Source of the DNA: Fidelibacterota bacterium
Lineage (GTDB): Bacteria > Fidelibacterota > Marinisomatia > Marinisomatales > TCS55
Assembly (NCBI GenBank): GCA_046861385.1
Contig: JBHHTW010000003.1
Location: 64,001 to 128,000, forward strand
DNA length: 64,000 nt
Direction of reading: 5' to 3'
Shown here: positions 38,353 through 63,954 of the stretch, piece after piece
How the letters are laid out: each line of letters starts with the position of its first letter
Position numbering within the stretch: the stretch's first letter is position 1
Notes under the pieces: generated by a model
What the model saw: only the letters and a program-made list of their open reading frames with translations
What the model was told of the DNA's origin: nothing
The model's database searches: none
Translations under genes and position numbers: made by a program

Positions 38353-40635
38353 TTATTTAACTATGGCCAATGTTCCTTTTTGAATTTTTCCATTGCTGGC
38401 AGGATCGAGAGATTTCACAACCCAGAAGTAAATACCGCTTACAACACGACCGGAGAATGAAATGGTATCCTGCCGCCATGATTCTTCTGCAGATTGTGAA
38501 TTCAGATGTTTTTTCTCGTAAACTAAATCTCCGGATGTTGTATAAATGCGAATGAGACAATTCCTTGGTAAATTGATAAACCGCAATTTATAGGGATCAG
38601 CGGCATCGGGATACATATGTTTAGTATCGTTATAGTCCAATCGGTAAGGATTAGGAACTACCTTGATAGGAACCGACATAGTATCATAGGATGCAAAAGA
38701 AGCCTGGAAGGGAGTGGTCGCAATAGCATTTTTTTGTTCAGGTGAAGTACTGCCGCTTTCCAGTGGTGGGATGGGTCCCAGATCATTTCCGTGAATATCC
38801 AACCAGTGTTCGTGCCCGGAATCGACAGTGCGGACACTGTAATAGTAGTTATAACCCGAAAATGAAGTTGAATCAGAGAATGTATAAATGCCAGTATTGG
38901 GGTCATAATACGTTGTGTCCCCCACGGAAATATCTAATAAATATTCCCAGGGACCATAGTGCCAATAATGTGATGGGGGCCAGGATTTATATATCCGATA
39001 GCTTCGAACGTCCCTGGCTTCGTCTCCTTCATAATCAGGGTCTGTTGCATTTTCTGCATCATCCGTCCAATGGACAATCACTTGTCCCAAACGTGTGCTG
39101 CCAAACCAAATATTTACATCAGGAGGTGGGTCGGGAAGATCATAATTATTTTCATAAGCAAATTTTGCTTTGTCAAAATTTTTAAATAGGGATCGCTCTC
39201 CCAATTTAATTTCTAATTTGGCTTCCGGTGTTGCAGACCATGTTAATTCATCTTCTCCCAACCAATCGGCTCCGGAGCCACCGACAAAAGCAAAAACCAG
39301 TTTGGCTTTTTGACCCGGCTCTAATTTATAGGGACCAAAAACCAATGCATGGGTCCCAGTGTCCGGTTTATTTGGGGGTGTTTTGGTTATATCGTTTTCA
39401 TCATTTAAAACAACCATATTAAACATTTCGCTATCCGTATGCTGCCTGGAATTAGGATCATCATAATCAAATTGATCAATATTACCGCTATGCCACCATT
39501 TTGTATAAGCCGGTTGTTTGTTTCCTGAAGGATGAACATAAGTGTCATCATTGGGTTTATAATCCAGAATTCCCATACCGATATATTGGTAAGCCTGGAG
39601 TTGATTTTCTTTTTGTCCCTGGAAATCATTTGGATGTCGGCTGGCTGCTTCCAGTTTGTAAGGCTGCCCCATATCATTCCATGAAGTCTCTATCCAATCA
39701 TCGTCCCGCTGGTAAAACATAATATAATCACGATAGTTTTCACTAAACTCTGGTTCATCGGCTGTAAATGTATCCGCCTTTGTATAAAAATGCAAATCAT
39801 CCTGGGTTTGTTTTCTATTTACACGCCAGTCGCTCCATCCCATACCAAATCCGTTAGCCCAACCATGAGCCATGGAATTTAAACTAAATGAATTCATGAG
39901 AGTCAGATAGGCCGGATCTAATATTTTATTACCCATATTTTCAAATATTAGTTCCTGAATAATAAAATCATCATAATCAGGATAACCCCAGGCATAGGCT
40001 TTGCGGGTAACCCGAATACCTGTTTTTGTCATCCATTGGCAAATGATGATTTCTTCCGGTACAGTATCATGAGCCGTATAGTCATGATATCGATAATTAT
40101 GAATTTCAACAGGTTCATTGCTTGAAATAGTATAATGATATGGGGAATAATTACTCCGTTCCCAATTGGGATAAGACGAATCACCTAATACGGATTCAGA
40201 TGAATTACGAATATTATATGGTGCAGGTTCAATATCATAAGTCACATTTCGAGGTCCTGAATATGAAACCAATGTGTCGTTATTATCATCCACGGCAAGT
40301 ATCCAAACTCCCTGCCCTTTGGAGCTTTGGGGAATGGTGACCCGAGGCATTTCGATTACATTTGGGTCTCCGTTGATATAAGCATCAATATCCAGAAAAT
40401 ATTCCACAAAATCCAAAGCCACCCTGGACATATTTCCGGGGTAGGTCAAACTTTCCTGAGAGTGGCTTCCTGAATGAACACGATTACCGCCGCCATCCAA
40501 TCCATTATTTCTATAGGATGACCACATTTTACCACGGGTTGAATGGCGGGGATTGAAATTGTCAATCATGTCTGCCTGAGCAAATAGCAGTGATATGAAT
40601 AAAATGCTTCCGGATAATTTTAATGCTGATTTCAA
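38353..40635 (-). CDS. Secreted protein of unknown function with Fn3-like domain and 'VVPNPY'-type T9SS/FlgD-Ig-like CTD; paralog of 44616-46925
   Basis: Signal peptide ending LLFA; PDPPP..YRIY..YYYSVRT; CTD VVPNPY..RFINLP..IRIYT.SGDLV..W..VVSGIYFW..KGTLAIVK; TTG start overlaps the upstream TGA. Confidence 0.85.
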   Translation of the reverse strand: MKSALKLSGSILFISLLFAQADMIDNFNPRHSTRGKMWSSYRNNGLDGGGNRVHSGSHSQESLTYPGNMSRVALDFVEYFLDIDAYINGDPNVIEMPRVTIPQSSKGQGVWILAVDDNNDTLVSYSGPRNVTYDIEPAPYNIRNSSESVLGDSSYPNWERSNYSPYHYTISSNEPVEIHNYRYHDYTAHDTVPEEIIICQWMTKTGIRVTRKAYAWGYPDYDDFIIQELIFENMGNKILDPAYLTLMNSFSLNSMAHGWANGFGMGWSDWRVNRKQTQDDLHFYTKADTFTADEPEFSENYRDYIMFYQRDDDWIETSWNDMGQPYKLEAASRHPNDFQGQKENQLQAYQYIGMGILDYKPNDDTYVHPSGNKQPAYTKWWHSGNIDQFDYDDPNSRQHTDSEMFNMVVLNDENDITKTPPNKPDTGTHALVFGPYKLEPGQKAKLVFAFVGGSGADWLGEDELTWSATPEAKLEIKLGERSLFKNFDKAKFAYENNYDLPDPPPDVNIWFGSTRLGQVIVHWTDDAENATDPDYEGDEARDVRSYRIYKSWPPSHYWHYGPWEYLLDISVGDTTYYDPNTGIYTFSDSTSFSGYNYYYSVRTVDSGHEHWLDIHGNDLGPIPPLESGSTSPEQKNAIATTPFQASFASYDTMSVPIKVVPNPYRLDYNDTKHMYPDAADPYKLRFINLPRNCLIRIYTTSGDLVYEKKHLNSQSAEESWRQDTISFSGRVVSGIYFWVVKSLDPASNGKIQKGTLAIVK

Positions 40636-43654: not shown

Positions 43655-44596
43655 TTATAAAGATCCACCAATGGAAATTCTTAGGGGAGGATCGAAATAT
43701 TCATCAAAGTTAGAATAAGCGATGTTAATTAATACTCTGCGAAGACCAATTTTTATTTTTAGTCCGGCGCCCACTGTCCAATCTTCAGTGTCATAGAAAA
43801 ACTTATATCCCCCGCGCAATGCAATCAAGTCCGCAATCCAAAGTTCAGAACCAACATGATATCGATCACGATAATCGGTTGCAAAAGCGCTTTCAGCAGA
43901 TACAAGCAACTGTATAGGGCTGCCGTGTTCGCCAATGATGCTCATGGCAGAATTAATATTGAAATAGAGGGGAAGTTTGAATTTCTTGGTTAAATATTTT
44001 GCATCCGGTCCAAAATTCTTCATGACCATGGCAATGGATAAATCTTTGAATCCTGATAAATAAAATGTGGAAAAGTCAAAAGCAAATCCTTTTGCTTTGT
44101 CGTTATCAATAAATTCTTCAATATATTGACCCTTAATGCCAAAGGATAATCTATCTGTTAGTCGAATAGCGTATGCAGTACTGATGGCAATATCTCCCGC
44201 CTCAATAAACCGTCCGGTTCCTTCTGGTTCAAAAATGGTTGTTTCTTCAAATTCTTCTGTTGTGAATCTGATAACACTTAATCCGAGCACGCTCCGTTTT
44301 CCTAAAGGGAATCCGATTGCTCCAGATATAAGTTTAGAATTAACAATCCAGTCCGTATGATTAAAACTAAAATCGATATTTTTAATATGGGTGAGTCCTG
44401 CCGGATTGAAAAAGATGGTTGTAACATCGTTTGCAACAGCCGTAAAAGCATCACCCATTCCTGCAGCACGAGCTGATGGACTGATTTTCAAAAATGAAAA
44501 TCCTGATTTTCCCAATCGCTTAAAATCGTCTCCTATCAACAAAGAACTTGTAAATAAAATAAGGGTTAGAATTTTGCCAATAGATGTCTTTTTCAT
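43655..44596 (-). CDS. PorV/PorQ-family (UPF0164, FadL-like) outer-membrane barrel
   Basis: FSFLKISPSARAAGMGDAFTAVAND...FFNPAGL, KNFGP, LPLYF, IALRGGY; signal peptide. Confidence 0.88.
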   Translation of the reverse strand: MKKTSIGKILTLILFTSSLLIGDDFKRLGKSGFSFLKISPSARAAGMGDAFTAVANDVTTIFFNPAGLTHIKNIDFSFNHTDWIVNSKLISGAIGFPLGKRSVLGLSVIRFTTEEFEETTIFEPEGTGRFIEAGDIAISTAYAIRLTDRLSFGIKGQYIEEFIDNDKAKGFAFDFSTFYLSGFKDLSIAMVMKNFGPDAKYLTKKFKLPLYFNINSAMSIIGEHGSPIQLLVSAESAFATDYRDRYHVGSELWIADLIALRGGYKFFYDTEDWTVGAGLKIKIGLRRVLINIAYSNFDEYFDPPLRISIGGSL

Positions 44597-44615
44597 AATA
44601 CTTTCATGATCAAAT

Positions 44616-46925
44616 TTATTTAACGACTGCTAATGTACCTTTTTGTATTTTCCCCTCGCTGGCAGGATCAAGAGAGTCGACAATCCAAAAATAGATACCG
44701 CTCACCACACGTCCTGAAAATGAGACAGTATCCTGACGCCATGAAGATTCAGCGGATGTTGCTTTTTGATGTACCTTTTCATATACGAGATCTCCGGAAG
44801 CAGAATATATACGAATCATGCAATGCTTAGGTAAATTAATAAAGCGTATTTTGTATGGGTCTGCAACATCAGGGTACATATGAGCCGGATCATTGTAATC
44901 TAATCGATAGGGGTTGGGAACGACTCGGATTCGTTCTGCCATTTGATCATAAATAGGAGCAGACGGCTGGAATGGAGTGACTGCAATCATATTTTTCTGT
45001 TCCGGGGAGGCATAACCGCTCTCGAGTGATTCAATGACACCATGGTCCACGCCATAGGGATCCACCCAATGATCGTGCCCTGAATCGTAGGTGCGGACAC
45101 TGTAATAATAATTATAACCGGCAAATGATTCATTATCAGTGAATGTATATTTCCCAGAGGAGGGCTCATAATAGTTACTATTTTTTAAAGGAATATCCTG
45201 GACCAATTCCCAGGGGCCATAATGCCAGTCAAAAGAGGTGGGCCAGGAGCGATAAACCCGGTAACCCCTGACATCATAAGCTTCATCTCCACTATAGTCC
45301 GGATCTCGGGCAGAATCTGCTTTGTCACTCCAGGTGAGTATCATATTCCCTGCCTGACTATTATGAAAAGTGACACTGACATCCGGAGGAGCATCCGGGA
45401 GATCAAATCCCATTTCATAAGCAAATATGGCTTTTTTGAAATTTTTTATAATTGAATGTTCACCATCTTTTATTTCAAATTTTGCATGTATTTCTTTGGA
45501 CCAGGTTATTTCATCTTTATGATGGAAATCAGCGCCGGAACCTGCCGCGAAAGCGAAGACAATTTTCGCCTTCTCCCCCGGATCTAACGTATATGGACCA
45601 AAAACCATTGCATGGGTCACCAACATGGAAGAATCGGGATTGTCTGCAATAGCTCCTCCCGTTGTATCAATCAACATTTGATACATTTCCACATCGGTAT
45701 GTCTTGATTTATTTGGTTCGTTGTAATCTAATTGATTACTGTTCCCATTCTTCCACCATTTGACCGCATAGGGCTGATTTGATAATTCCGGAGGTACATA
45801 AGATTCATTCGGATCATTTATGAATGGAGGCATAAAATCGATGAGACCACATCCAATATATTGATAACCCAAAAGCTGGTTTTCGGTCTGTCCTTGAAAT
45901 TCATTATAACTATCCAAGTCTGCAAATGTAGAGACAAATGGCTGTCCCGTATCATCATGCGGCGTACCTAACCAGTCATCATCCCGCTGATAACAAAAGA
46001 CTAAATCTTTGTAAACAGCCGTACTCTCCGGATTATCGGCTTCATAGTTTGGAGCACCTGTGTATAATAGCCAATCATCTTGGGCTGATTCAGCGTTAAT
46101 TCTCCAATCCCCCCAACCCATACCGTTTCCTTTTGCCCATTGGTGTCCACCGCTGGAAATACTAAAACTATTCATTAAAGTGAAGTAAGTATCTGTGAGG
46201 TTATTTGAACCGGAATTTTCAAAAATAATTTCCTGTAGGATGAAATCATCATATTCTGGATAGCTCCAGGCATATGCTTTTCGGGTAGCAGTGATTCCCA
46301 TTTTATTTTTCCACTGACTGATGATTATTTCTTCCGGAAATTCATCATCCAAGATATACTTCCCATGAGCATAATTATGAATTTCTATCGGTTCATTGCC
46401 CTGTACTGTAAAGTGATAAGGTGAGTAATTAGACCGTTCAATACTCGGCCAGGATGAGTCACCGAGTGATTCTTCAATAGATCCGCCCATTGAATACCGT
46501 TCATTATCAATATCATCACTTATATCGCGAGGTCCTGAATAGGAAACCAGTGTATCATTTCCGTTTACAACGGCTAAGACCCACACTCCAGTACCTCGTC
46601 CATTTTGCGGATTACAGACCCGAGCCACATCCAGGATATTGGGTGCTCCTGAAACGACTGCCTCTATATCCAGCCAATATTTCATGAAATCCTGACCCCT
46701 GCCAGCATTCCCCGGGTATTCTAATGATGTTTGATCGTGGCTTTGATATCTTGGTGTATTTCCACCTCCCTGGAGGCCATTGCTCCTAAATGTATCCCAG
46801 AGTTTAGACCGGGTTAATAATCTTGGTGAAAAACCGGTTACAGGATCTGCCTGGGCTGAAAGGGTAGTAAAAAATCCCGAAAGAGTAAATGTAATAAACG
46901 TTAGCCAAATAATTCGAATTTTCAT
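44616..46925 (-). CDS. Secreted protein of unknown function with Fn3-like domain and 'VVPNPY'-type CTD
   Basis: Signal peptide ending LSAQ; collinear with 38353-40635; CTD ends KGTLAVVK. Confidence 0.85.
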   Translation of the reverse strand: MKIRIIWLTFITFTLSGFFTTLSAQADPVTGFSPRLLTRSKLWDTFRSNGLQGGGNTPRYQSHDQTSLEYPGNAGRGQDFMKYWLDIEAVVSGAPNILDVARVCNPQNGRGTGVWVLAVVNGNDTLVSYSGPRDISDDIDNERYSMGGSIEESLGDSSWPSIERSNYSPYHFTVQGNEPIEIHNYAHGKYILDDEFPEEIIISQWKNKMGITATRKAYAWSYPEYDDFILQEIIFENSGSNNLTDTYFTLMNSFSISSGGHQWAKGNGMGWGDWRINAESAQDDWLLYTGAPNYEADNPESTAVYKDLVFCYQRDDDWLGTPHDDTGQPFVSTFADLDSYNEFQGQTENQLLGYQYIGCGLIDFMPPFINDPNESYVPPELSNQPYAVKWWKNGNSNQLDYNEPNKSRHTDVEMYQMLIDTTGGAIADNPDSSMLVTHAMVFGPYTLDPGEKAKIVFAFAAGSGADFHHKDEITWSKEIHAKFEIKDGEHSIIKNFKKAIFAYEMGFDLPDAPPDVSVTFHNSQAGNMILTWSDKADSARDPDYSGDEAYDVRGYRVYRSWPTSFDWHYGPWELVQDIPLKNSNYYEPSSGKYTFTDNESFAGYNYYYSVRTYDSGHDHWVDPYGVDHGVIESLESGYASPEQKNMIAVTPFQPSAPIYDQMAERIRVVPNPYRLDYNDPAHMYPDVADPYKIRFINLPKHCMIRIYSASGDLVYEKVHQKATSAESSWRQDTVSFSGRVVSGIYFWIVDSLDPASEGKIQKGTLAVVK

Positions 46926-46943
46926 GTATTGAAACTCAATTCA

Positions 46944-49900
46944 TCAGAAAGATGAACGGATTCCGATTTTAATTTCTCGTGGTGTGCCATGGTATCTCGA
47001 ATTCGCATAAAAATCGCCATATTCTTGATAAAGCTCATTATCAGGACGAGGTGTTTCCATTCCCCAGCGAATGTATTCTGGTCCGTAAATTGATTTAAAA
47101 CTTCCATCTCCACGTATGTCTCTTTGATTAAATAAATTCGTTATTTGAACGAATAATGTTGCTCGATAATTACCTTTTTTGAAGAATATTTTTTCAAAAC
47201 TTAAATCAGTTTGTGTTGTCAGGGGACCATTACGCCATTCATTTGGCTTCCCGGGTGGGGAGTAGTCAAAAGGAGTTCCCGTAGACATTTTGTAGATCAT
47301 ATTGATGGTAATATCCCCCAATAGTCCCCAAGGACCGAATTTGTCCGGAGTTGCAAAAAAGAGTTGTGCCTTTCCATAACTACGTATATCTGCTTCTGGT
47401 TTAGGTTGTTCTTCAGTTCCTCCCCAAAATTCCACAACCCACAAACCCGTCGAATCTAATTGGTGGACTTCCAGGCCCAAAGATCTTAAAGAATCGATGA
47501 AGGTGTTTGCTTTGGATGCATATGAATTAACCAAAAAAAATGGGAAGAGGGGCCGGGGGTTTTCAGAGCCATCCTCGTTGACAGAATATTGCGTCCAAAA
47601 ATGACCATTGGCAATGAATTGTGAATCCGGTATCCAAAATTGACTGCCAATTCCTGCTTCACCCTGAACCGCCCACTGTAAATTATAGGATAATTTGAAA
47701 CCAAAGTTTCGGTTGAAATTTTTCTTTAAGCTTAATTCGAAACCTTGGATATCCTCGTGAATACCATTCCCGGCCATGTGGGTAAATTGAAAATCAAACA
47801 TTTGCTTTGCCGGGTCCCACCAATTTAATTGAACAGATCCTGGACTGCTCACCTGATTGTTAGAACTTTTGTAAAATGTGGAGAGAGCCAGAACGTAGTC
47901 GGCATAAAAATTCCAATCAAAACCAAGCTCAAAGCTGATTGTTTTTTCATACTGAAGCCTCGGATTCCCAAAATTCCCCTCCTCGATTGTATTATATTCC
48001 TCGGTGGGATCGCTGATGCCATTTCCATTAATATCTTTGTCTCTTGAACCATCATTAGACCAATATTCTCCAAATAAAGTGTAGAAACTGGCTAATTGAT
48101 AAATATGACCATAAAAGAAATGGATCATGGAACGATCAGTAATCGGGTGGGCGACGCCAATCCGTGGGCTCCATGCTGTGATGGGTTCTACCTTTTTAAG
48201 TAAACCAAATGCATTAAGCGAATCGTAATTAAAACGTGTAAATGAATTAAAAAAGAAATCAGACGCTCCCATGGCGGTCGTCACCGGATACTCGGTGCTG
48301 GGATCAAAACGATCCAATCGTATCCCTGCATTTACTACTAAACCTTTATACTCCATTTTGTCCTGAATGTACCATGCGAATTGTTTGGGTTTTACAGGCG
48401 ATTCTAAGGTGTGATGATCCCCAATGAACGAAAATGATCTTCTGTTTAAAATATCATTATAGTTGACTGCCCATACATTATATTCCGTATAATCAAACCC
48501 TGTCTTTAGAAAATTATTTTGATTCAATTGTGTTGAAAAATCAAATTTAACACCAAAACGAATGCGTTGTCCTTTAGTGAAAGCATTTATTTTTCGAGGT
48601 AAATAAAACCAATTATCCTTATCCTTCTGGATACCGGTGGTTGAATCGGGAGTATCTTCCGGTGTTTGGGTATTAACAGAATTTGAAATACGCAATTCAT
48701 AATATGTTTTTTCACTTAACATATGGGTGAAGGACAGATAATTCATTTTATCGGTATTGACCGTTTTACCAGCGGCGGCTTCATTCATGGGTAGGAAAAT
48801 ATTTTGACCTCCGCTCCTGATTCCTGCTGTTCCTCCGCCCGAATTAAATCCCCAACTCGAAGAATACAATCCTCCAAATTTTAGGGCAATTTTTGGATGG
48901 ATGTTAATTGACAGTTTCCATGTACCATTAAAATTATCAGCAGCATGTGAAAGAGGACTAATCTCATTGACGGCTTCGTTTGAGGTGCGACCGCCCAGAA
49001 AGAAAGAAATATTTTTTGTGATGGGTCCCGCCAAATTTCCTTGAATGGCACCTCCCCAATTTTGAACATAATCAATTTTTTTATGGACGAGATTACCTGT
49101 TAAACTATCAATTTCATTCACCCATTCCGCATTGTCCCAATGCATATGGCCTCGATGTTCCGGCGAATCAAAATAATTTGGACCCCAGTGGTGCTTTCCT
49201 GATAATTCATTTGTGTATTCAATATTAGCGTGAAAGATATCTGTTCCTTCTTTGGTAACAATATTGATGATTCCAGCCTGTGCATTTCCATATTCTGCGC
49301 TCAGTCCGCCGGTGATGATAGAAATGGACTCAATATCATATTTACCCGCGCCGTTATAATTGAGAAGGCTCAATCCGTCATTGCTGATCATTTTAACACC
49401 ATCGACGTAATATACAACATCTGCAGCAATGGAGTTCATATCACCTCCACGAATCATTCCCCGTCCACCAATATCCATCCCCGGCTCCAATGCGATCAGT
49501 TCCTCTACATTTTTTACCAGCACTGAACGTCCAATATCCTCTGAACTCACGATATATTCACTGTACGTCCTATCCACCTCAACACGAGGTCTTTCTGCCA
49601 CAACAATGACTTCTTCGCCTTCAATGGCTTCTTCATACAGGGTAAAATTGACTAAGGATGTTCTGTCAGGATTAACTTTAATATTTTTAATAGTTAGAGA
49701 TTTATACCCAATCATTTGAGCAGTCAAACTGTAGGAACCAGGAGCCACATTTAATATGACAAAATATCCATCTTTATCAGCGGCTGCACCGCGGTTTGTT
49801 CCAGCCAAGAGTATATTGGTTCCGGATAAAATTTGCCCTTTACTATCTTTAACATGCCCATTTATTTTTCCAGTTATACCTCCAATCAAATTCAAGGGAA

Positions 49901-49961
49901 TTAAGATTAAGAAAATTATAAAGACAAGAAACGCCTTTTTTCCATTCATAGACAAATTCAT
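46944..49961 (-). CDS. TonB-dependent receptor with N-terminal carboxypeptidase-regulatory-like domain
   Basis: GITGKINGHV, ISIITGGLSAEYGNAQAGIINIVTK, YIQDKME..GLVVNAGIRLD, SPRIG, NLFN, PREIKIGIRSSF. Confidence 0.93.
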   Translation of the reverse strand: MNLSMNGKKAFLVFIIFLILIPLNLIGGITGKINGHVKDSKGQILSGTNILLAGTNRGAAADKDGYFVILNVAPGSYSLTAQMIGYKSLTIKNIKVNPDRTSLVNFTLYEEAIEGEEVIVVAERPRVEVDRTYSEYIVSSEDIGRSVLVKNVEELIALEPGMDIGGRGMIRGGDMNSIAADVVYYVDGVKMISNDGLSLLNYNGAGKYDIESISIITGGLSAEYGNAQAGIINIVTKEGTDIFHANIEYTNELSGKHHWGPNYFDSPEHRGHMHWDNAEWVNEIDSLTGNLVHKKIDYVQNWGGAIQGNLAGPITKNISFFLGGRTSNEAVNEISPLSHAADNFNGTWKLSINIHPKIALKFGGLYSSSWGFNSGGGTAGIRSGGQNIFLPMNEAAAGKTVNTDKMNYLSFTHMLSEKTYYELRISNSVNTQTPEDTPDSTTGIQKDKDNWFYLPRKINAFTKGQRIRFGVKFDFSTQLNQNNFLKTGFDYTEYNVWAVNYNDILNRRSFSFIGDHHTLESPVKPKQFAWYIQDKMEYKGLVVNAGIRLDRFDPSTEYPVTTAMGASDFFFNSFTRFNYDSLNAFGLLKKVEPITAWSPRIGVAHPITDRSMIHFFYGHIYQLASFYTLFGEYWSNDGSRDKDINGNGISDPTEEYNTIEEGNFGNPRLQYEKTISFELGFDWNFYADYVLALSTFYKSSNNQVSSPGSVQLNWWDPAKQMFDFQFTHMAGNGIHEDIQGFELSLKKNFNRNFGFKLSYNLQWAVQGEAGIGSQFWIPDSQFIANGHFWTQYSVNEDGSENPRPLFPFFLVNSYASKANTFIDSLRSLGLEVHQLDSTGLWVVEFWGGTEEQPKPEADIRSYGKAQLFFATPDKFGPWGLLGDITINMIYKMSTGTPFDYSPPGKPNEWRNGPLTTQTDLSFEKIFFKKGNYRATLFVQITNLFNQRDIRGDGSFKSIYGPEYIRWGMETPRPDNELYQEYGDFYANSRYHGTPREIKIGIRSSF

Positions 49962-49972
49962 AGGATATCAGA

Positions 49973-50005
49973 ATCAGACCGCCCCGATTTCCGGGGCGGT
50001 CTGAT
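49973..50005 (-). terminator. Perfect 14-bp GC-rich hairpin without a U-tract (weak terminator or mRNA-stabilising stem)
   Basis: ATCAGACCGCCCCG-atttc-CGGGGCGGTCTGAT between the 50012 stop and the TBDR start. Confidence 0.55.
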
Positions 50006-50011
50006 AGGATA

Positions 50012-51007
50012 TTATTTTATGAGCAGTAATTTTCTGGTTTGAGTAAAACTGCCTGCTTCAATACGATAAAAGTAAACTCCTGACGGCATATCTCCGGCAT
50101 CCCACACGGCTGAGTGTGTCCCGGGTGTAACCACCATATTTACCAAAGTGCTCACCTCTTTTCCCAAAACATTGAATACGGCAAGTTTAACCGGTCCTAT
50201 TTCAGGAATCGTATAGTTAATGTGTGTAACCGGATTGAATGGGTTTGGATAATTTTGATTCAACTCAAACCCTTTAGCGATCGATGCATTATCATCAATT
50301 CCGAGAGGGGGTGATTCGTTATAGTAAACATCGTCAATGTGAAGCGCGCTGGAATCATCATCAAAGACCCCAACCAAAACCAACATGGGTGCCGGATCTG
50401 TAACATTGTCTGTTGTGAACACAAATTGTGCCGTATCTGTTGGAGCTGAACCATCTGCAAAAGCCCAAACAGAAACAGTATCGCCCTTAGTTACAATTTT
50501 CTTCCAAAACCATTGATTGTATACAATAGCATCATTAATAACAGGACCGCCCATTTGATCCAATTGAAAATAATAACTGCCAACCCCGCTTATTACTGGT
50601 GATACAGCAGCAGTATAAACATTCAAGTTTGTTAAAAAATTAGGGTCAATAGCGATAGCAACATGAAATTGATCCCGGTCGGTTGGTGTTCCTGTTGTGG
50701 ATATTTTCAATTTTATCCATATTTCAGAATCGGTTGGCGTAATGGGTGCATTTGCATCAGTCGATTGATCGATTTGAAGCCAACAGGAATTATTATCAAA
50801 GGGATCAGTGCCGGGATCGGGAACGGTAAGCATTAGTTCACCTCCAGATACTTCAACACCTCCCCAACCCCACCATGTCCAGCTCATGTCACTGTTAACA
50901 GCTCCTGTAATTGCAGGAGTAGCGTCAGTCGAAAAACTCTCATGCCACCCGAATATAGTCGTCTGTATAATCATAATAGTGATCACTGCTAATATCGTTT
51001 TCTTCAT
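50012..51007 (-). CDS. Secreted beta-sandwich protein with NYPNPFNP-type (T9SS type A-like) CTD
   Basis: Signal peptide; strong SD AAGGAG; CTD LNQNYPNPFNPVTHINY..VFNVLGKEV..W..SGVYFYRI..KLLLIK. Confidence 0.85.
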   Translation of the reverse strand: MKKTILAVITIMIIQTTIFGWHESFSTDATPAITGAVNSDMSWTWWGWGGVEVSGGELMLTVPDPGTDPFDNNSCWLQIDQSTDANAPITPTDSEIWIKLKISTTGTPTDRDQFHVAIAIDPNFLTNLNVYTAAVSPVISGVGSYYFQLDQMGGPVINDAIVYNQWFWKKIVTKGDTVSVWAFADGSAPTDTAQFVFTTDNVTDPAPMLVLVGVFDDDSSALHIDDVYYNESPPLGIDDNASIAKGFELNQNYPNPFNPVTHINYTIPEIGPVKLAVFNVLGKEVSTLVNMVVTPGTHSAVWDAGDMPSGVYFYRIEAGSFTQTRKLLLIK

Positions 51008-51038
51008 TGTTATCTCCTTGGTTTGTTATCTCTGCTAT

Positions 51039-51758
51039 TTAATATTTATATGTGAGTCCTAATTCAAATGTTAAAAATTGTAATGGCACAACTTCAAATA
51101 AACCCCAGTCTTCGAATGAGCGTAAATAGCCAATAGAGGTATGATAATTAATGCTGAATAGGAGGTTCATTGTCTGATTAATTGATGAGTAACCGCCAAC
51201 GCCTAGGTTTCCACCCCAAGCGACTCGCCTGTCAGTAACGGGAGCCATTATTTTATTTTCATCCAATGGCTGTCTGTATTGCCCAGGATATATTAGACCT
51301 TTTACATGGTGAGTATAATTGTAAAACCCAATACCGTAAGTAATGGAAGGGTGGATTCTCCTACTAACCAAGTCAAATGTTTTCCCGGTAAAATATTTTC
51401 GTGTTTTTAGAATAAAATCATTCCAAATCATATTGGCATTTGCTTGGTTGCTGGAATAATAATTGTAGTCAACGATCCACTTGAATTTCTTATTTTCAAT
51501 TGATCCGTGGTTATATTTCTGATAATGAAATTCAAAAACGGTCTCTGTGCTTTCATTATTCTTAAAAGCGTATTGAATTCCAATAACAGGGGTGACGTTG
51601 TACCAATTATTTAAACCCAATATTGGAACACCCGTGCCGGTAAAAAAAGATATACTTTGATGTTTGTCAGGTAGTTGAGAGAATATAGATGAAGTGATAA
51701 TTACAGCGGTAAAGAGATAATTAAATTTGATTTTGGTAGATTTGATTCGTTCCTTCAC
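51039..51758 (-). CDS. Small outer-membrane beta-barrel protein (OmpA/OmpW-like)
   Basis: Signal peptide, amphipathic strands, C-terminal FELGLTYKY. Confidence 0.65.
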   Translation of the reverse strand: MKERIKSTKIKFNYLFTAVIITSSIFSQLPDKHQSISFFTGTGVPILGLNNWYNVTPVIGIQYAFKNNESTETVFEFHYQKYNHGSIENKKFKWIVDYNYYSSNQANANMIWNDFILKTRKYFTGKTFDLVSRRIHPSITYGIGFYNYTHHVKGLIYPGQYRQPLDENKIMAPVTDRRVAWGGNLGVGGYSSINQTMNLLFSINYHTSIGYLRSFEDWGLFEVVPLQFLTFELGLTYKY

Positions 51759-51839: not shown

Positions 51840-54179
51840 TTACCTTTTTATGAGCCAGACTTCATTTAACCTTGACTGCAATCGCCAGTTAATGTCCGGT
51901 TCATAGGGAATCTCAAATGTTAACTTGATTGTCCCGGTCCGGTAGAGATCTTTTGAAATGGGAAATTCTTTTATTTCACCAATTCCTTTTCCATCAAGTG
52001 TAGGAAATATGTGTTTTCCGTTCACACTGACCAGACACTGACCATACCCGGTTGTCCGGAGGATATAAGTTGCAGTTGGGTCAATATGATCATATTGAAG
52101 TCCCACCGGCCAGTCCATTTTACTGACCCATGATTGGCGTACCCGAGCCATCCCATTATTCCACCACATAAAATCAGGATTTGGATTGGTAATCATGAGC
52201 GGATCTTCTGAGAACGGTTTTCCTCTCAAAACATGTTCTGACTTGGATATATTCCCTATGTCATCATAAAAACTTCCTGGACCCGGATGTTCCCAGGTAC
52301 GGATGATATCTAGCCGGGAAAGTTTTTCATCTTCAGACGTCATTTTCTCTATTTCAGCAAACTGATCTTCGATCCACCAACGATTATTCAACGGATAGTC
52401 AATATAATCCAGAACGGCACTTCGTTCCGGGTTACTGGCACCATATTTTGGCACACTGCTCTGGTAGCCCATATTCTCATATAATGTGCCACAGAGAGCA
52501 ATTATCTTTTGTCTGAATTCCGGGTGAATTGGATGATCGTCTACCCGGGCAAAAATGGCCCTGGCTTGTTCTATCGTTTGACCTGCTCCGATTTCCGGCG
52601 CTTTGCCTAAAAGAACATTCACTTCATTCTCCAAGCCCTGTTCATGAAGGAGTCTGGCCCTGATGTAGGCGTCATAATATCCTTTCAACTGGATGAACTG
52701 CCACCGCCAGGTATCATTCAATTCCGGATTAGATTGTTCGAGAGATTGGATTTCTTCCAGGGTGACATTTACTCCTGTATTTTCAACGAGGGGGCCTGAC
52801 CAATTGGATTCCAGGCTAAAAATCAATTGGGTGATTTTTGGGGAAAGAGCCGGGCTAAAAAAGAACTGAGAATACTCCCGGATTACATCCCGGACATCCA
52901 TTTGATGATCCCAACCGAGCAAACTGTAAACAAATTTGTTCACATCATCATGAATTCCGTCGGAATAGGTAATAAACCCATCAATATATTGTTCATTATG
53001 ATGAAAAATAGTGCTGTAATATACTGGTTCCGGATTGGTTCCTTCCCGACCGGAAGTAAATGCGAATGCAGGATCAATCCATACAGCGGGGTATTGAGCC
53101 CGAACCGTATGAGTAATATCGGGATAGTCCCGGAGTAAATATTGTTTTGGTAATTGTTCACGGAGATAAGGCAGGGGAGGGCTGGACGGCCCGCCGACGG
53201 CTCCCCCAAACCACGATGGTTGATACTCCTGAATCCATTGGAAAAAATACAGAATCTCGTCTTCCTCAAATCCCTGCAGGGACATCCAAATTTTGGTATG
53301 GGGAAAATGTTGTTTAAGTAATTCGGATATATCTTCCAGAAAGGGCATCACATATTTAGGGTGATTATTCCCCGGGTCGCCCCCAGGAAAAAAGACAGCA
53401 TCTAATTTTGTACATTCTTCATAAAAGGCTTCATTCTCCAGTAGATGGGCCGCCCGTTTATCCGGATCACTGAGATCCACAGTTGCTGGAGTCCATACCC
53501 AATACTGCATTCCATATTTACGGCAGATATTCCCCAGCACGCGGTTCATTTCCTTTTTAGGTAGGGGCATCAGGGGGCTTTCTCCCCCAGACAATGGAAT
53601 GTTCTCGATGGCATTCACGCCGAAAATAGCTAATTCCCGGATATATTGATCGTATTGTTCCGGCGTCCAGGCATCGTATGAATTGGCCGTAGGCCGATAG
53701 CCAAGCTGGTGGCCGCGGATACGATGATCTGGTGAGGATTGAATATTCAACGGATGATCCAACACAATTTCTCCAGGAGACATTTGAAGGGTTCGGAGCA
53801 ATTTCCCGACGCCATTCATAACCCCTTTAGGGTCAATTCCTTGAATGATGAGTATGTTATGATCCGTGGAAATTGCAAATCGACCGTTTTGTTCAGTGGA
53901 ATCTTGAAAGAAATCAGGTCCGGCTTGAATCAAAATCGCCTTTCCCTTTGTTGGGTGATCATTGGATATTTTCCAGCGGATTCCAGTTCGTTTTTCCACT
54001 TCTTCCACCAAAACCGTGACAGCTGTTTGTTCGACCAGAGGAAGGGTCTCATCTTCAATCACCACCGTTACCTGGGTCCAATGGGTGGCATTGGAAGGAT
54101 GAATATGTTGAGTGGGACGACATGAATTCCACAAAAAGAAGTAGAATAGGATCGGAAGGACATGATTCATTTTTTTCAT
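51840..54179 (-). CDS. Putative lipoprotein glycoside hydrolase: GH20/GH67-type N-terminal domain plus unassigned catalytic domain
   Basis: Lipobox-like WNSC; LVEEVEKRTG..IQGIDPKGVMNGVGKLLR..SP..RIRG; FFPGGDPG, YPDITH, YSDGIHDD. Confidence 0.65.
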   Translation of the reverse strand: MKKMNHVLPILFYFFLWNSCRPTQHIHPSNATHWTQVTVVIEDETLPLVEQTAVTVLVEEVEKRTGIRWKISNDHPTKGKAILIQAGPDFFQDSTEQNGRFAISTDHNILIIQGIDPKGVMNGVGKLLRTLQMSPGEIVLDHPLNIQSSPDHRIRGHQLGYRPTANSYDAWTPEQYDQYIRELAIFGVNAIENIPLSGGESPLMPLPKKEMNRVLGNICRKYGMQYWVWTPATVDLSDPDKRAAHLLENEAFYEECTKLDAVFFPGGDPGNNHPKYVMPFLEDISELLKQHFPHTKIWMSLQGFEEDEILYFFQWIQEYQPSWFGGAVGGPSSPPLPYLREQLPKQYLLRDYPDITHTVRAQYPAVWIDPAFAFTSGREGTNPEPVYYSTIFHHNEQYIDGFITYSDGIHDDVNKFVYSLLGWDHQMDVRDVIREYSQFFFSPALSPKITQLIFSLESNWSGPLVENTGVNVTLEEIQSLEQSNPELNDTWRWQFIQLKGYYDAYIRARLLHEQGLENEVNVLLGKAPEIGAGQTIEQARAIFARVDDHPIHPEFRQKIIALCGTLYENMGYQSSVPKYGASNPERSAVLDYIDYPLNNRWWIEDQFAEIEKMTSEDEKLSRLDIIRTWEHPGPGSFYDDIGNISKSEHVLRGKPFSEDPLMITNPNPDFMWWNNGMARVRQSWVSKMDWPVGLQYDHIDPTATYILRTTGYGQCLVSVNGKHIFPTLDGKGIGEIKEFPISKDLYRTGTIKLTFEIPYEPDINWRLQSRLNEVWLIKR

Positions 54180-56533: not shown

Positions 56534-57754
56534 TTATTTTAGTAAAATCAGTTTCTGACTTTTACTAAAACTTTCGCTTACCATTTGCAAAATATAGACT
56601 CCGGTGGGGACGGAATTTCCAGACTCATCGTGTCCATCCCAAGTTAGATTATAAGTCCCCGGTTGATATTTTTTTGTCTCAGACATGATTTCCTGACCGA
56701 GGAGTGTATAAATTGTAAATGAAATATTCGATTGTTTAGGTACGCTGAAATCCACATGTGTCACAGGATTGAAAGGATTCGGATAATTCTGACTTAAAGA
56801 ATATTCTCTAAATGGTCTAGTATTATCCTGATCAACTTGAACATAATCCAGTCCTATAAACTCACTTACTCCACGAACTAAAGCATAAGCAGTCGAATCA
56901 TATGAACCAGCTTGCGCACAATTCATATCTTCGTAGGTTAATGCCATCACATTTTCGCCCTGAGTCATCCACCACCAGCTTTCCGGGTATTGATCGGGAG
57001 TACCCGATGTCCAACTGATAAAATAATTCCATGATTCAATACCGCCGGGGAAATAGGATTGGATTCCATTGATAAATTGCTGTTCAAGTAGTGCATAGTT
57101 ATTAGAAGTACCTTGGGTAGCGTGGTAAACGAAATAGCGAGAACAATTATAAGCGGAATGCATATTGAGAGCCACTTCTATCGGGTTACTAAGTGCCATA
57201 AGTTCAATGAAACGGTTTTTTAATACAATAACTTCTGGTTCCAAGATTGTATCATCCCAGCCGCTTTCAATATCTACACCGTTGGCATTCTCACGGGGAT
57301 AACCCAATTCCACTCCATCCGGATTAAACATTGGAATAATGTGAAAAACACAATTTGCCCGTACAAATTCAGCAAAGGGCATTTCAGAAAGTAATAAATT
57401 GATAATTTCATTGGTAACCCAGAAAGATTCTTCTTCTCCGGGATGGGTTCTGGCATGAATATAGACCCGTTTTAAAGATGAGGTTTCCAGATGATTTTCT
57501 GTAATTGTTAATTCCCATATGGCACGGTTTTGCGCAGTAGCTCCCAAGGAATCGATTAGGACATACGGGCTGTCCCCCCAACGATTCAAGTCGACGAGTA
57601 AGCTATCATAACCATACCCCCAATTTTGGTCAACCATATGAGTAATATCCTCATGATCCGGAATTAATCCGCATTTATTATCATCCTGCTGATAAATAAT
57701 AGCTTGTCCAATTAAAATAGAATAGAAGTAAATAATTGCAGCAATGTGCCTCAT
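56534..57754 (-). CDS. Secreted M14 zinc carboxypeptidase with NYPNPFNP-type CTD
   Basis: ARTHPGE (HxxE), PMFNPDG, RENANGVD, LNMHS, TYE; CTD LSQNYPNPFNP...KLILLK. Confidence 0.88.
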   Translation of the reverse strand: MRHIAAIIYFYSILIGQAIIYQQDDNKCGLIPDHEDITHMVDQNWGYGYDSLLVDLNRWGDSPYVLIDSLGATAQNRAIWELTITENHLETSSLKRVYIHARTHPGEEESFWVTNEIINLLLSEMPFAEFVRANCVFHIIPMFNPDGVELGYPRENANGVDIESGWDDTILEPEVIVLKNRFIELMALSNPIEVALNMHSAYNCSRYFVYHATQGTSNNYALLEQQFINGIQSYFPGGIESWNYFISWTSGTPDQYPESWWWMTQGENVMALTYEDMNCAQAGSYDSTAYALVRGVSEFIGLDYVQVDQDNTRPFREYSLSQNYPNPFNPVTHVDFSVPKQSNISFTIYTLLGQEIMSETKKYQPGTYNLTWDGHDESGNSVPTGVYILQMVSESFSKSQKLILLK

Positions 57755-57773: not shown

Positions 57774-59144
57774 TTATTTTTTTACTTTCCATAAATAATA
57801 GAATGTACCGCTGGCTGTTAATGCGATTCCGATCAAAGAAGGTATAAACGCCGTCACCAAAGTAATAATGAAGAATGCGGAATAAAGAATCAGAACAATG
57901 ATCATGCTCCAAGGATAAAAAAGCGCTTTATACGGACGCTTCTTATTCGGCCATTTTTTCCGAAGAATATAAATCGCACCAAAGGTCAGTAGGTTAAAAA
58001 TTGTGCTGGTCGCAGAAAAGAAATCAATAATCATTTCATAAGCATTGGTCCCGCTTGATCCAGAAGAAATATAAGTTGAAACCACCGCAAAAATAAGTAA
58101 AACCGTTGCCCAGATTCCCTGTCCTATCAAAGCGTTATTCGGTGTTTTAAATACCGGATGGAGTTTTTTAAACTTATTAAAAAACAATCCGTCTCTGGCC
58201 ATGGCATGCCAGGTTCTGCTTTTACATAAAATTTGTGTGCTGATATTTCCAAAAGCATTTACAGCGACAGCAAGTGATATGAGAATTCCACCCGTGGCTC
58301 CCAGAACGACTTTCATGGCTGCGGAAGCAACCCATTTATTTTCTATTATGGCATTCACATCTAATTGATATAAATATCCCAAGTTGGCTCCTAAATAGAG
58401 AAGCATTACTCCCCCGATTCCCAGGAAAAGAGACAGGGGTAATGTTTTTTGGGGATGTTTCACTTCCTCTGCCAAATAGGTTGCACCTTCCCATCCGCTA
58501 AAGGCAAAAAATGAATACCGTAATGCAGCGCCAATAGCAAGAATGGTCGGCCAGCCAAAGGAATCCGGCCACAATGGATTGGTAAAATTTTGGATATTGC
58601 CGGTTGAAAAGGAAGTTAAAGTAATACCGATGATGGCTCCCAACGCGCCAATTTTTATCGTACTGAAAAAGATTTGAAATTTTCCACTCATTCTGACACC
58701 AAAGAGATTGATGCCCGTCAAAAGCCATATAGTGATAAGGGCAATAATAAATGTGAGTGTCAGGCCGAATGGTGTTCCAACCAAAATTTCTGTAATGGCA
58801 TTCAAGTATTCAGTAAAAACCAAAGCAACTGCTACTATTGAAGCTGTTTCAGATACAAAAAACATTGCCCAGCCTCGAATGAAAGCGATGTAGGGGCCAT
58901 ATGCTTCCTTCAGAAAAACATAGGGACCGCCGGATTTGGGAAGCATCGCAGTGAGTTCGGCATAGATTACTGCGCCAAAAATGGTAATGATTCCGCCGAT
59001 GACCCAAACCAGACCAAATAGTGATGTACAACCCACCAAAGCCATAATGGGTGCAGGCGTTCGAAAAATTCCTGAACCAATAATCCGACTAATGACGATA
59101 GCGACAGACTCTTTTAGCCCCAATCCTTGTTTGTAATCAGTCAT
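57774..59144 (-). CDS. APC-family amino acid/peptide permease
   Basis: IIGSGIF, AELTAMLPKSGGPY, FAFSGWE, AEEVKHP, AMARDG. Confidence 0.93.
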   Translation of the reverse strand: MTDYKQGLGLKESVAIVISRIIGSGIFRTPAPIMALVGCTSLFGLVWVIGGIITIFGAVIYAELTAMLPKSGGPYVFLKEAYGPYIAFIRGWAMFFVSETASIVAVALVFTEYLNAITEILVGTPFGLTLTFIIALITIWLLTGINLFGVRMSGKFQIFFSTIKIGALGAIIGITLTSFSTGNIQNFTNPLWPDSFGWPTILAIGAALRYSFFAFSGWEGATYLAEEVKHPQKTLPLSLFLGIGGVMLLYLGANLGYLYQLDVNAIIENKWVASAAMKVVLGATGGILISLAVAVNAFGNISTQILCKSRTWHAMARDGLFFNKFKKLHPVFKTPNNALIGQGIWATVLLIFAVVSTYISSGSSGTNAYEMIIDFFSATSTIFNLLTFGAIYILRKKWPNKKRPYKALFYPWSMIIVLILYSAFFIITLVTAFIPSLIGIALTASGTFYYLWKVKK

Positions 59145-59159
59145 AATAAAAAATGAAGC

Positions 59160-60443
59160 TTATTTATAAAGATAATAACTTGTTGAAAGCTTTTTGAAAT
59201 CCTGAATGGATTTTTCGTAAGATTGAAATAATGCTTCAGCATCTCCGTCTGAATTGATTATTTGACTTAAATCCTGATTTCCCCAAAGTCGCGGGAGAGA
59301 TGTTTTTAACTCAAAGTGCTCAGGATATAATTGATGAATCACACCCAATATTTGAATTCCCGTGGAGACCGGTTCAAATTCACGGTAATTTAAGATTGTA
59401 ATTGAAACTCCCTCGCAGGGCACGTTTTCATATTTCGGATATAACGATTTTCCGGGCAAGGAAACTGGTGTAAAGGAGATGGGCTTAAAAGACACTCCGG
59501 GTAAATGTTTTAAAATCATCATTTGTGACAATTGCTTACCATCGACCCAAGGTGCTCCAATCCATTTAAACGGATGGTCTGTTCCTCTTCCTTCGCTCAC
59601 ATTGGTTCCTTCAACCATACACATGCCTGCATAAATTACCGCCGTTTCCACATCTGGAATATTGGGCGAAGGGGATATCCAGGGGACATTCGTTTCATGG
59701 TAATAACTATTTCTCCTCCAACCTTTCATTGGTATGACGGACAACTCAGGCGTGACCGATATCCAATTTTCTCCCACAATCATTTTGGCTAGTTCACCTG
59801 CGGTGAGTCCATAACGATTGGGGATTGGATACATGCCCACGAATGATTTAAGATCCATGTGAAGGATGGGGCCGGAGACTTCGGTTCCTCCCAATGGATT
59901 GGGTCGGTCCAGAATCATTACCGGGATATTTGCTTCTGCGGCTGCTTCCATCACAAGACCCATTGTAGAAATGTATGTATAAAATCGGGTGCCTACGTCT
60001 TGTATATCATAAATAATCAAATCAAGCCCATTCAGCATATCCAGTGTTGGTTTTCTAGTTTTTCCATATAGACTAAAAATAGTCGGAAAATCATTCAGTT
60101 CCTGATTAGTTATTTTTTGCCCGGCAGAAACATTTCCAAAAAAGCCGTGTTCAGGTGCGAAAATAGCTTTTAGATGAACATCATTCAATTTCATCAATAA
60201 TTTATAATTTGGTAAACCACTCAGATCAACACCTGTATGGTTCGTAACCAGCCCGATATTTTTCCCTTTAATTAAATGTATTTGATCTTTAATTAATACA
60301 TCCAGTCCGTTTAAAACGTGTAAAATCTCGATGGGTGGAATATCTTTATTCTTGAATAATTCTGATTGCTGCTGGTGTGTGGAAGGATGTTCCTGAGATT
60401 GAATGATCGAACAAAACACCAATAGAAAAAATACATACTTCAT
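59160..60443 (-). CDS. namZ: Exo-beta-N-acetylmuramidase NamZ (DUF1343), second copy
   Basis: IGLVTNHTG, FAPEHG, YDIQDVGTRFYTY, LDRPNPLGG, SPNIP, EGTNVSEGRGT; start moved to ATG 60443 (signal peptide MKYVFFLLVFCSIIQS). Confidence 0.92.
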   Translation of the reverse strand: MKYVFFLLVFCSIIQSQEHPSTHQQQSELFKNKDIPPIEILHVLNGLDVLIKDQIHLIKGKNIGLVTNHTGVDLSGLPNYKLLMKLNDVHLKAIFAPEHGFFGNVSAGQKITNQELNDFPTIFSLYGKTRKPTLDMLNGLDLIIYDIQDVGTRFYTYISTMGLVMEAAAEANIPVMILDRPNPLGGTEVSGPILHMDLKSFVGMYPIPNRYGLTAGELAKMIVGENWISVTPELSVIPMKGWRRNSYYHETNVPWISPSPNIPDVETAVIYAGMCMVEGTNVSEGRGTDHPFKWIGAPWVDGKQLSQMMILKHLPGVSFKPISFTPVSLPGKSLYPKYENVPCEGVSITILNYREFEPVSTGIQILGVIHQLYPEHFELKTSLPRLWGNQDLSQIINSDGDAEALFQSYEKSIQDFKKLSTSYYLYK

Positions 60444-60459
60444 TATAAAATGCCAGTCC

Positions 60460-63952: not shown

Positions 63953-63954
63953 GT

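Follow-up and report, generated by a model that had tools for sequence, protein, structure and literature searches.

The described systems closest to the gene cassette reported here are the SusC/SusD polysaccharide utilization loci (PULs) and two kinds of cargo and barrel pairs of the secretion system of type IX (T9SS). In the PULs, a surface-protein gene comes directly after that of a TonB-dependent receptor (TBDR), which has an N-terminal extension of the CarboxypepD_reg type, and the loci occur in multiple copies, each with different degradative enzymes and an inner-membrane transporter. We take the TbpB-TbpA-Slam system of Neisseria to follow the same logic, with a TBDR, a surface partner that captures the substrate and a dedicated outer-membrane barrel that are often encoded together. 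In the T9SS, as described in a review (PMC10202324), PorZ and PorU do not lose their C-terminal domains (CTDs), which are bound to PorQ and PorV, respectively, and the genes of type B cargo, the CTD of which is probably uncleaved, cluster with those of their own cognate PorP/SprF outer-membrane barrels (SprB-SprF, PG1035-PorP), which are proposed as secretion partners and anchors. Here, we describe a cassette with likenesses to each of these systems. It lies in a window of 64,000 nucleotides (the whole stretch of DNA that was analyzed) from a Fidelibacterota bacterium, positions 64,001 to 128,000 of contig JBHHTW010000003.1 (contig C89 below), and comprises the genes of a TBDR (TBDRc), a protein with a distinct C-terminal tail (CTDX) and an outer-membrane barrel of the PorV/PorQ family (PorVc). 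The source genome (GCA_046861385.1) has a size of 2.43 Mb and is 98% complete; among named protein relatives, the nearest carry the label Candidatus Marinimicrobia.

The cassette shares the above-mentioned features of the PULs, but it contains neither a SusD fold nor a lipoprotein and its TBDR fails the SusC/RagA model. The partner of the TBDR is instead a predicted T9SS cargo protein with a beta-supersandwich, and a third gene, that of the PorV-like barrel, is obligatory. In the strict sense of an adjacent susC-like and susD-like gene pair, the cassette is therefore not a PUL. With the T9SS attachment complex of Porphyromonas gingivalis (PorZ-PorQ and PorU-PorV) it has in common a barrel of the PorV/PorQ family paired with a cargo that would keep its CTD, uncleaved and bound. 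The cargo of the cassette is, however, a putative binding protein and no component of the machinery for secretion; the pair occurs about nine-fold, its two genes are adjacent and a TBDR always goes with them, and the barrels fail the equivalog cut-offs of both PorV and PorQ. As in the type B pairs, the cargo gene is followed directly by that of its own outer-membrane barrel, but the cassette barrel is of the PorV/PorQ family and the known type B pairs have no link to a TBDR. The Slam systems presumably differ in their unrelated protein families, their lipoprotein cargo, the absence of a T9SS and their hosts, which are Proteobacteria.

In the window the cassette is part of a closely packed, co-directional gene run. 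The initial annotation, made from the DNA letters alone, had described this run from a small outer-membrane barrel gene to the PorVc gene, followed by symporter, ceramidase-family and second CTDX genes. It had proposed that a private PorV paralog exports or tethers a substrate-binding protein beside its TBDR, in the role of SusD. Every gene of the run was recovered where it had been placed, on the minus strand (Table 1). That SusD is missing stood for the run itself, as Pfam and NCBIfam scans gave no SusD match among the open reading frames (ORFs) of the region, but not for the genome as a whole, which has one canonical SusC/SusD pair. On contig C60 (L025 9012-13186, minus strand), the sole canonical SusC/RagA gene of the genome (493 bits, with the signature motif) is followed by a SusD_RagB-like gene, and the single genome match of SusD_RagB is at C60:9072-9323. 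Because of this pair it can be said that SusC/SusD and the cassettes coexist in one genome. The order of a CTD protein followed by PorV had also been noted at 63955-62918 and proved to be real. There, the stop codon of the CTDX ORF is at 63954-63956 and the PorVc gene starts two bases on, while the TBDR (918 aa) and the CTDX protein (1081 aa) of this second cassette are encoded just past the window end, at C89:127955-133967.

The unit was found not only at this locus; it is a cassette with multiple copies in the genome that also occurs in several phyla. The PorV/PorQ-family model gave 14 matches in the genome, 11 of them above the cut-off. Nine barrels form one subgroup by blastp, and eight of these stand in the order TBDR (873-1123 aa), CTDX (680-1241 aa) and barrel on the ORF map. 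In the variant ninth cluster, on contig C13, the TBDR adjoins the barrel and a large protein is encoded 5 kb upstream of the TBDR. The intergenic gaps were between -23 and +30 bp in the seven canonical cassettes measured. All CTDX proteins of the genome (11/11) and all cassette-type TBDRs (10/10) are encoded within or beside such clusters. The tail profile retrieved these 11 proteins and no others from the genome at E up to 1e-8. When the parts of the window cassette were compared to the genome by blastp, the nine best non-self matches of the 1005-aa TBDR were exactly the nine other cassette TBDRs, and the 769-aa protein matched CTDX proteins only and none of the ∼46 type A CTD proteins. The 313-aa PorVc matched the barrels of the other cassettes best and was more distant from two PorV/Q-like genes beside SprA and from the likely housekeeping PorV (C2, 459 aa). 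The cassette barrels thus form a subgroup of their own, apart from the likely housekeeping PorV, which agrees with the proposal of a private paralog. Mantel tests on the eight canonical cassettes showed that the pairwise distances of the three parts are correlated (tail versus barrel r 0.75, p 0.004; TBDR versus barrel r 0.68, p 0.009; TBDR versus tail r 0.85, p 0.0006), and the cassettes have therefore duplicated and diverged as units.

A double cassette was observed at C9:14772-28152 (L019), where one PorV-like barrel is flanked by two TBDR-CTDX pairs (1048 + 680 aa and 1017 + 709 aa); a 179-aa ORF and the gene of a 436-aa TIG-domain protein also lie between the pairs. In the window, the 760-aa CTDX paralog is without a barrel gene of its own; its tail was included in the alignment of 11 copies. 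One barrel may serve two cargo proteins, both at C9 and for the 769-aa and 760-aa paralogs.

The synteny, which the initial annotation had singled out for a survey, was strongly conserved in the genome, in the phylum and in other phyla. ORFs at the fetched loci were labeled using hidden Markov models built from this genome's own families. The profile of the 769-aa family matched 68 of 121 phylum genomes at E up to 1e-20 (46 of the 82 high-quality ones), and four further genomes encode full-length orthologs of the 769-aa protein, in each case with two paralogs, as in the window. The orthologous loci L026-L029 repeat the arrangement of the window, with a gene for a 230-243-aa protein at the small-barrel position, the type A CTD gene, an ORF of 446-455 aa at the place of the ceramidase-like gene, and the second paralog. 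The SSS (sodium:solute) symporter is kept in L029 and is not intact in L026-L028. TBDRc and CTDX were located at most three genes upstream of the barrel at all 20 loci from 20 phylum genomes, and a type A CTD gene directly preceded the TBDR at 12 of them. The tail profile matched all 41 phylum genomes that are at least 90% complete, with 1-22 copies each and a median of 10 (hand count); streamlined 1-Mb genomes of the phylum still had one or two copies.

For the cross-phylum scan, five cassette barrels were compared to one genome per species (185,579 species), and 589 of 600 stretches were confirmed. Among the best 79 loci, CTDX was located directly upstream of the barrel in 61 of the 65 loci with at least 1.5 kb of upstream sequence. 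Three of the four exceptions had one small ORF or type A CTD ORF in between, and L084 had nothing. Where at least 7.5 kb were available, TBDRc and CTDX both lay at most three genes upstream in 45 of 47 loci. In three further loci the barrel was masked in ORF calling and TBDRc and CTDX directly preceded the match; eleven of the 79 loci were too short and stand outside these counts. The record labels include Neomarinimicrobiota, Calditrichia/Caldithrix, KSB1, Ignavibacteria/Melioribacteraceae, Gemmatimonadota, Delongbacteria and Stahlbacteria, and many metagenome-assembled genomes (MAGs) are labeled "Bacteroidota." The labels Alphaproteobacteria, Lentisphaeria and Chromatiales at a few loci are improbable and were not trusted. 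Counted per genome, and named by record label, there were 10 CTDX tails in Gemmatimonadota, 23 in Calditrichia, 10 in Melioribacteraceae, 6 in a "Bacteroidota" MAG and 15 in KSB1. Many Calditrichia, KSB1 and Gemmatimonadota loci (L053-L062 and others) also had a run of conserved ORFs after the barrel (∼430-460 aa and ∼285-325 aa, in some loci also a ∼269-aa ORF ending in ...GLKG/E). These ORFs may be further parts of the large-form cassette.

The tail is a ∼95-residue C-terminal domain common to the CTDX proteins. The alignment of the 11 genome copies gave the pattern I.VVPNPY ... F.NLP..C.IRIY..GDLV....H ... W ... GIY ... GKFAVIK, with V, P, P, Y, F, I, I, G, H, W, G and Y as invariant positions; in the 769-aa protein it reads VVPNPY ... 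NLP..C.IRIY..GDLV...H ... W ... GIY ... G.LAVVK. Only 5 of the 3470 genome ORFs of at least 80 aa end in G..A[VIL][VIL]K. All five are CTDX proteins and four are encoded directly before a PorV-family gene, a coincidence of pattern and adjacency that far exceeds chance. Judged by its sequence, the tail is a divergent T9SS CTD. The type A model TIGR04183 matched 7 of the 11 tails at E up to 0.1 (best E 1.4e-4), but the tail of the 769-aa protein reached 14.6 bits versus the cut-off of 23 and is not a type A member. PF18962 (cut-off 27 bits) matched 4/11 tails and PF13585 (CHU_C) 6/11. With CHU_C, the 769-aa tail alone had a borderline score of 29.5 bits versus a cut-off of 27; for the whole protein it was the sole Pfam match, at 24.6 bits and thus below cut-off. 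At E up to 0.1, none of the 11 tails matched the type B model TIGR04131. When compared with the PorZ and PorU models, 11/11 and 6/11 tails, respectively, matched the CTD part. This likeness was considered as a sign of a retained CTD and dropped, as the type A CTDs of the genome match the PorZ part at similar scores.

In a set of 1.84 billion cluster representatives, 4919 had a match to the tail profile at E up to 1e-10, rising to 13,654 when E up to 1e-3 was allowed, and the match ended at the last residue of the protein in most of the 150 representatives listed. A few very long proteins (1516-2417 aa; P0229-P0231, P0247, P0299, P0378) contained 8-15 internal, partial CTDX-like copies and no single terminal copy; the core of the domain is therefore also used as a repeat module.

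An interface between CTD and PorV, which had been suggested for modeling, was predicted for the pair in the window. When the 313-aa barrel was modeled together with residues 655-769 of the CTDX protein, the complex had a score of 0.92 in three runs, and the best of three controls scored 0.00. The mark for this score is reached by 58 of 80 solved complexes and by 2 of 110 mismatched pairs, counts that hold roughly for the present model, for which our own alignments were used. The runs agreed in at least 92% of the contacts and the pLDDT of the partner was at least 85. The contacts involve the conserved tail motifs VVPNPY, IRIY..GDL and GIY, as well as the last strand.

The AlphaFold2 (AF2) model of the 769-aa protein (pLDDT 83.2, pTM 0.84) showed a signal peptide (residues 1-24), a beta-supersandwich (∼25-510) and a long helix, then an FN3 domain (∼518-615), followed by a linker and the tail (655-769). 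The best match of the supersandwich in VIA-align was the glucoamylase N-domain 1lf6_A (Z 18.6, root-mean-square deviation (rmsd) 3.1, 238 residues aligned), and the best matches include the N-domains of glucodextranase and of glycoside hydrolases (GHs) of families GH94, GH65 and GH116; Foldseek concurred. By fold alone, the domain thus belongs to the galactose-mutarotase-like beta-supersandwiches, the class of the GH15/GH65/GH94/GH116 N-domains. The model of the 1081-aa protein (pLDDT 82.5) showed this organization as well, plus additional beta-sandwich domains and an insert rich in Asp. Its best structural matches were the same, with the dextran dextrinase 9ju0 at Z 20.2 (rmsd 3.2, 261 residues aligned). 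No catalytic (alpha/alpha)6 domain was present in either model. Outside the tail, the 769-aa and 1081-aa families are homologous (hhalign probability 99.8%, E 7e-30). The CTDX proteins are therefore one superfamily with a carbohydrate-binding-type core. The Asp-rich insert of the 1081-aa protein (L016 2956-6201) spans residues ∼283-381, with the motifs DGIDND.DG and D.DGDWD. It is conserved across phyla, was modeled with low confidence and resembles calcium-binding repeats. The corresponding stretch of the 769-aa family is without those motifs and aligns poorly.

The initial annotation had considered that the 769-aa protein might prove to be a characterized secreted enzyme. Pfam, NCBIfam, homolog labels and the PDB sequence search assigned it to no characterized family, and its supersandwich fold is of the carbohydrate-binding, non-catalytic type. 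No Pfam or NCBIfam model covers the CTDX bodies, the 769-aa family had no match among PDB chains at E up to 1, and an Atlas search using the N-domain retrieved unnamed clusters only. All 108 homologs of the 769-aa protein are labeled "hypothetical," except for one labeled as fibronectin type III domain-containing. Of 8000 candidates scored, at least 2317 were related to the large (1081-aa) form at E up to 1e-50; this form is present in the named isolates Rosettibacter firmus and Melioribacteraceae bacterium 4301-Me. When the N-termini of the 11 CTDX proteins were inspected by eye, they appeared to be ordinary signal peptides. No standard lipobox was seen, and two had a Cys in an atypical context. 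The CTDX proteins would therefore need a non-lipid means of retention at the surface.

Both barrels of the window scored above the cut-off of the PorV/PorQ family model NF033709 (90 bits; Table 1). They remained below those of the PorV equivalog NF033710 (71.9 and 78.8 bits; cut-off 250) and the PorQ equivalog NF033711 (97.9 and 87.2 bits; cut-off 220), and matched the BamG family model weakly. NF033709 also gave matches above the cut-off in the control genome of Bacteroides thetaiotaomicron. As we take this species to be without a T9SS, PorV-like barrels evidently have roles beyond secretion. The 1005-aa protein tested as a TBDR, with PF13620 (63.5 bits) and Plug (PF07715, 29.6 bits; cut-off 23.9), and its barrel part gave, from sequence, a partial TIGR01782 match at 522-765; the 918-aa TBDR of the second cassette matched PF00593 with 88.5 bits. 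The SusC/RagA model TIGR04056 (cut-off 368) matched the 1005-aa TBDR with 73.6 bits and in the N-terminal 225 residues only, so that it is not a member, and TIGR04057 gave no match in it.

Genes of the T9SS were found for SprA (C30), PorU (C15:57162-60422) and PorV (C2), the latter being the best PorV candidate of the genome with 195 bits versus the equivalog cut-off of 250. A PorZ-like gene (C15:96626-98959) scored 167.7 bits, below the cut-off. As these genes and ∼46 type A cargo proteins are present, export of CTD proteins is plausible. PorP/SprF (TIGR03519) had no match in the genome, and none in the control either.

On balance, we think it probable that the CTDX proteins are glycan-binding proteins displayed by the T9SS and held beside TBDRs by private PorV-like anchors, in a SusD-less analogue of a PUL. 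The CTDX protein would be exported by Sec and displayed at the cell surface by the T9SS, which would take the place of lipoprotein export. There, the PorV-like barrel of the next gene downstream would keep hold of its cognate tail, an anchoring that would mirror that of PorZ by PorQ, of PorU by PorV and of type B cargo by PorP/SprF. By these precedents, each barrel is proposed to retain its own CTDX protein next to the TBDR, a proposal that the one-to-one gene pairing, the in-step divergence and the predicted interface fit. The supersandwich and FN3 domains would then capture a glycan and, in putative contact with the neighboring TBDR, hand it over. The symporter, which likely provides the inner-membrane step, and the downstream hydrolases would complete uptake and breakdown.

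Several observations weigh against this reading. The initial annotation had proposed to search the genome for the T9SS. SprA was found, but GldL, GldM and GldM_1st had no match and GldK a weak, partial one using Bacteroidota models, with which the controls were also unmatched or below cut-off. Either the motor and ring genes are very divergent or the T9SS is energized differently. Structures of PorV have been solved (6h3i, 8gl6-8gln), and for this reason the complex score may reflect likeness to them and not binding of this pair; the model covers the cognate pair only, and specificity with respect to the housekeeping PorV lies outside its result. The PorZ- and PorU-like scores of the tails do not discriminate them from ordinary type A CTDs. 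The cross-phylum loci were kept by their barrel match and are not a random sample of PorV genes. Finally, GH174 fucanases, which have the same fold, matched the CTDX models with Z 14.6-15.4, and the CTDX N-domain has many invariant Glu, Asp and His residues, which together indicate that the CTDX protein may be an enzyme and not a binder.

The invariant residues and the GH174 matches, which allow for catalysis, also bear on a reading in which the barrel acts in export only. It would be a cargo-specific shuttle or co-translocon factor, as PorP/SprF is for type B secretion, and the CTDX protein would be released or otherwise attached as an extracellular enzyme or binder, with the TBDR merely importing the products. 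Synteny and the predicted interface fit this as well, and according to the review (PMC10202324), PorV of Bacteroidota acts as a shuttle and the secretion of type B cargo needs its cognate barrel. Export alone is the main rival reading, but we consider it unlikely. A housekeeping PorV is already present for general export, and a barrel in each cassette that diverges along with the tail and the TBDR is easier to understand as part of a lasting one-to-one complex than as a transient shuttle. There is also no recognizable catalytic domain in the 769-aa and 1081-aa models.

Alternatively, PorVc could be a FadL-type channel for amphipathic or hydrophobic molecules that acts in parallel to the TBDR, with its link to the CTD protein being secondary. 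The profile of the PorVc subfamily matched the FadL-family channels TodX and TbuX (E ∼1e-7) and, weakly, Toluene_X, and a ceramidase-like enzyme and an alpha/beta hydrolase are encoded downstream in the window. The match to the solved F. johnsoniae PorV (6h3i_F) was far stronger (E 3.4e-35), however, the tail was modeled confidently on the barrel, and the barrel stays directly after CTDX despite quite different flanking enzymes, which makes a channel of this type very improbable. Even less is to be expected of a module for surface architecture or adhesion (an S-layer-like coat or particle attachment, with the TBDR-like barrel as structural base), which would suit the large, multi-domain beta-sandwich CTDX proteins with FN3, the calcium-site-like Asp-rich inserts of the large ones and the many copies per genome, but not the plug domains retained by the TBDRs, the transporters and glycan- or peptidoglycan-degrading enzymes in the flanks, or the one or two copies kept by streamlined 1-Mb genomes, which suit a nutritional role.

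As in PULs, the enzymes that flank the cassettes vary, with a GH13 amylase at the cassette on contig C56, and GH18, NamZ, an amino-acid permease and an M14 carboxypeptidase at the second cassette of the window. The salvage genes in the rest of the window (1764-29017), together with its two NamZ genes, look like a murein-scavenging island (Table 1). The cultured member of the phylum lives on exogenous muropeptides (PMC11652737). Given this diet and the richness of the window in genes for peptidoglycan and amino-sugar salvage, we suggest, with low confidence, that an amino-sugar glycan could be the substrate at this locus, for example fragments of peptidoglycan or chitin. For the 239-aa protein encoded upstream of the TBDR, the model had a TM score of 0.64-0.78 versus OMP_b-brl/Opacity-type clusters of the Atlas, and the Pfam scan gave no match for it. 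Between 35800 and 54400, 66 promoter-like sites were seen versus 58.7 expected in a scan without promoters of the Fibrobacterota-Chlorobiota-Bacteroidota (FCB) type, and 14 terminator-like sites versus 17.5 expected; these counts are uninformative.

Table 1. Genes and gene parts in the 64,000-nucleotide window, with the evidence for each assignment.
Feature	Position	Strand	Evidence or remark
SpoIID	1764-3020		
GH3 and beta-lactamase-fold fusion	8568-11489		
AmiA-like MurNAc-L-Ala amidase	11852-12733		
Non-cassette TBDR	21275-23851		
SSS symporter	23926-25701		follows the non-cassette TBDR
GH84-type beta-N-acetylglucosaminidase	25969-27279		
Exo-beta-N-acetylmuramidase NamZ, 427 aa	36006-37289	minus	NamZ_N 288.4 bits, NamZ_C 126.9 bits
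Alpha/beta hydrolase, 285 aa	37386-38243	minus	Abhydrolase_1 121 bits
Second CTDX protein, 760 aa, end GTLAIVK	38353-40635	minus	58% identity to the 769-aa paralog over 762 residues
Membrane-anchored neutral/alkaline-ceramidase-like hydrolase, 447 aa	40632-41975	minus	PF04734 62.3 bits, residues 57-244
SSS symporter, 517 aa	41980-43533	minus	PF00474 147.7 bits, TIGR00813 228.7 bits
PorVc, PorV/PorQ-family outer-membrane barrel, 313 aa	43655-44596	minus	NF033709 182 bits
CTDX protein, 769 aa, VVPNPY inside, end GTLAVVK	44616-46925	minus	CHU_C below cut-off
CTDX tail, residues 655-769	44619-44963	minus	alignment of 11 genome copies
TBDRc, TonB-dependent receptor, 1005 aa	46944-49961	minus	CarboxypepD_reg and Plug
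Secreted protein with type A T9SS CTD, 331 aa	50012-51007	minus	TIGR04183 45.2 bits (cut-off 23), PF18962 33.7 bits
Small outer-membrane beta-barrel protein, 239 aa	51039-51758	minus	first gene of the run; Atlas structure search
779-aa protein	51840-54179		directly upstream of the run; possible lipoprotein-type start (...LWNSC); no match in the Pfam scan
M14 carboxypeptidase with type A CTD	56534-57754	minus	Pfam; downstream of the second cassette
Amino-acid permease	57774-59144	minus	Pfam; downstream of the second cassette
NamZ	59160-60563	minus	Pfam; downstream of the second cassette
GH18 with type A CTD	60460-62898	minus	Pfam; downstream of the second cassette
PorVc of the second cassette, 344 aa	62918-63952	minus	NF033709 202.7 bits
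3' end of the 1081-aa CTDX gene, second cassette	63954-64000	minus	sequence read; ends GKFAVIK and stop

All parts of the cassette are of known kinds, and, as far as we found, their combination, multiplicity and range have not been described. A full-text literature search returned no description of the cassette (supplements and subscription journals lie outside its coverage), nor did the accessible parts of the Caldithrix and Melioribacter genome papers and of two T9SS reviews. In one of the reviews, CTD proteins are stated to be restricted to Bacteroidota (PMC10202324).

In a wider view, which we put forward tentatively and as a possibility, the cassettes would be the main apparatus for polymer capture and import in the FCB phyla outside the classical Bacteroidota, namely Marinimicrobia/Fidelibacterota, Calditrichota, Ignavibacteriota, KSB1 and Gemmatimonadota. 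They would represent an independent, possibly older counterpart of SusC/SusD, in which the T9SS and private PorQ-like anchors replace the export of surface lipoproteins and one supersandwich family takes the role of SusD and of surface glycan-binding proteins (SGBPs). In the ocean and in sediments, Marinimicrobia and related FCB phyla are abundant and break down organic matter, and we know of no previous explanation for their SusD-free uptake of polymers. If the proposed role is correct, the cassettes would serve as a genomic marker for substrate use in these largely uncultured phyla, as PULs do in Bacteroidota, and a large unnamed protein family would be defined. The T9SS anchor principle known from PorZ-PorQ and type B-PorP would extend to nutrient uptake and beyond Bacteroidota, and the presence of cassettes in a peptidoglycan-salvage island may tie them to the muropeptide dependence of the cultured member of the phylum.

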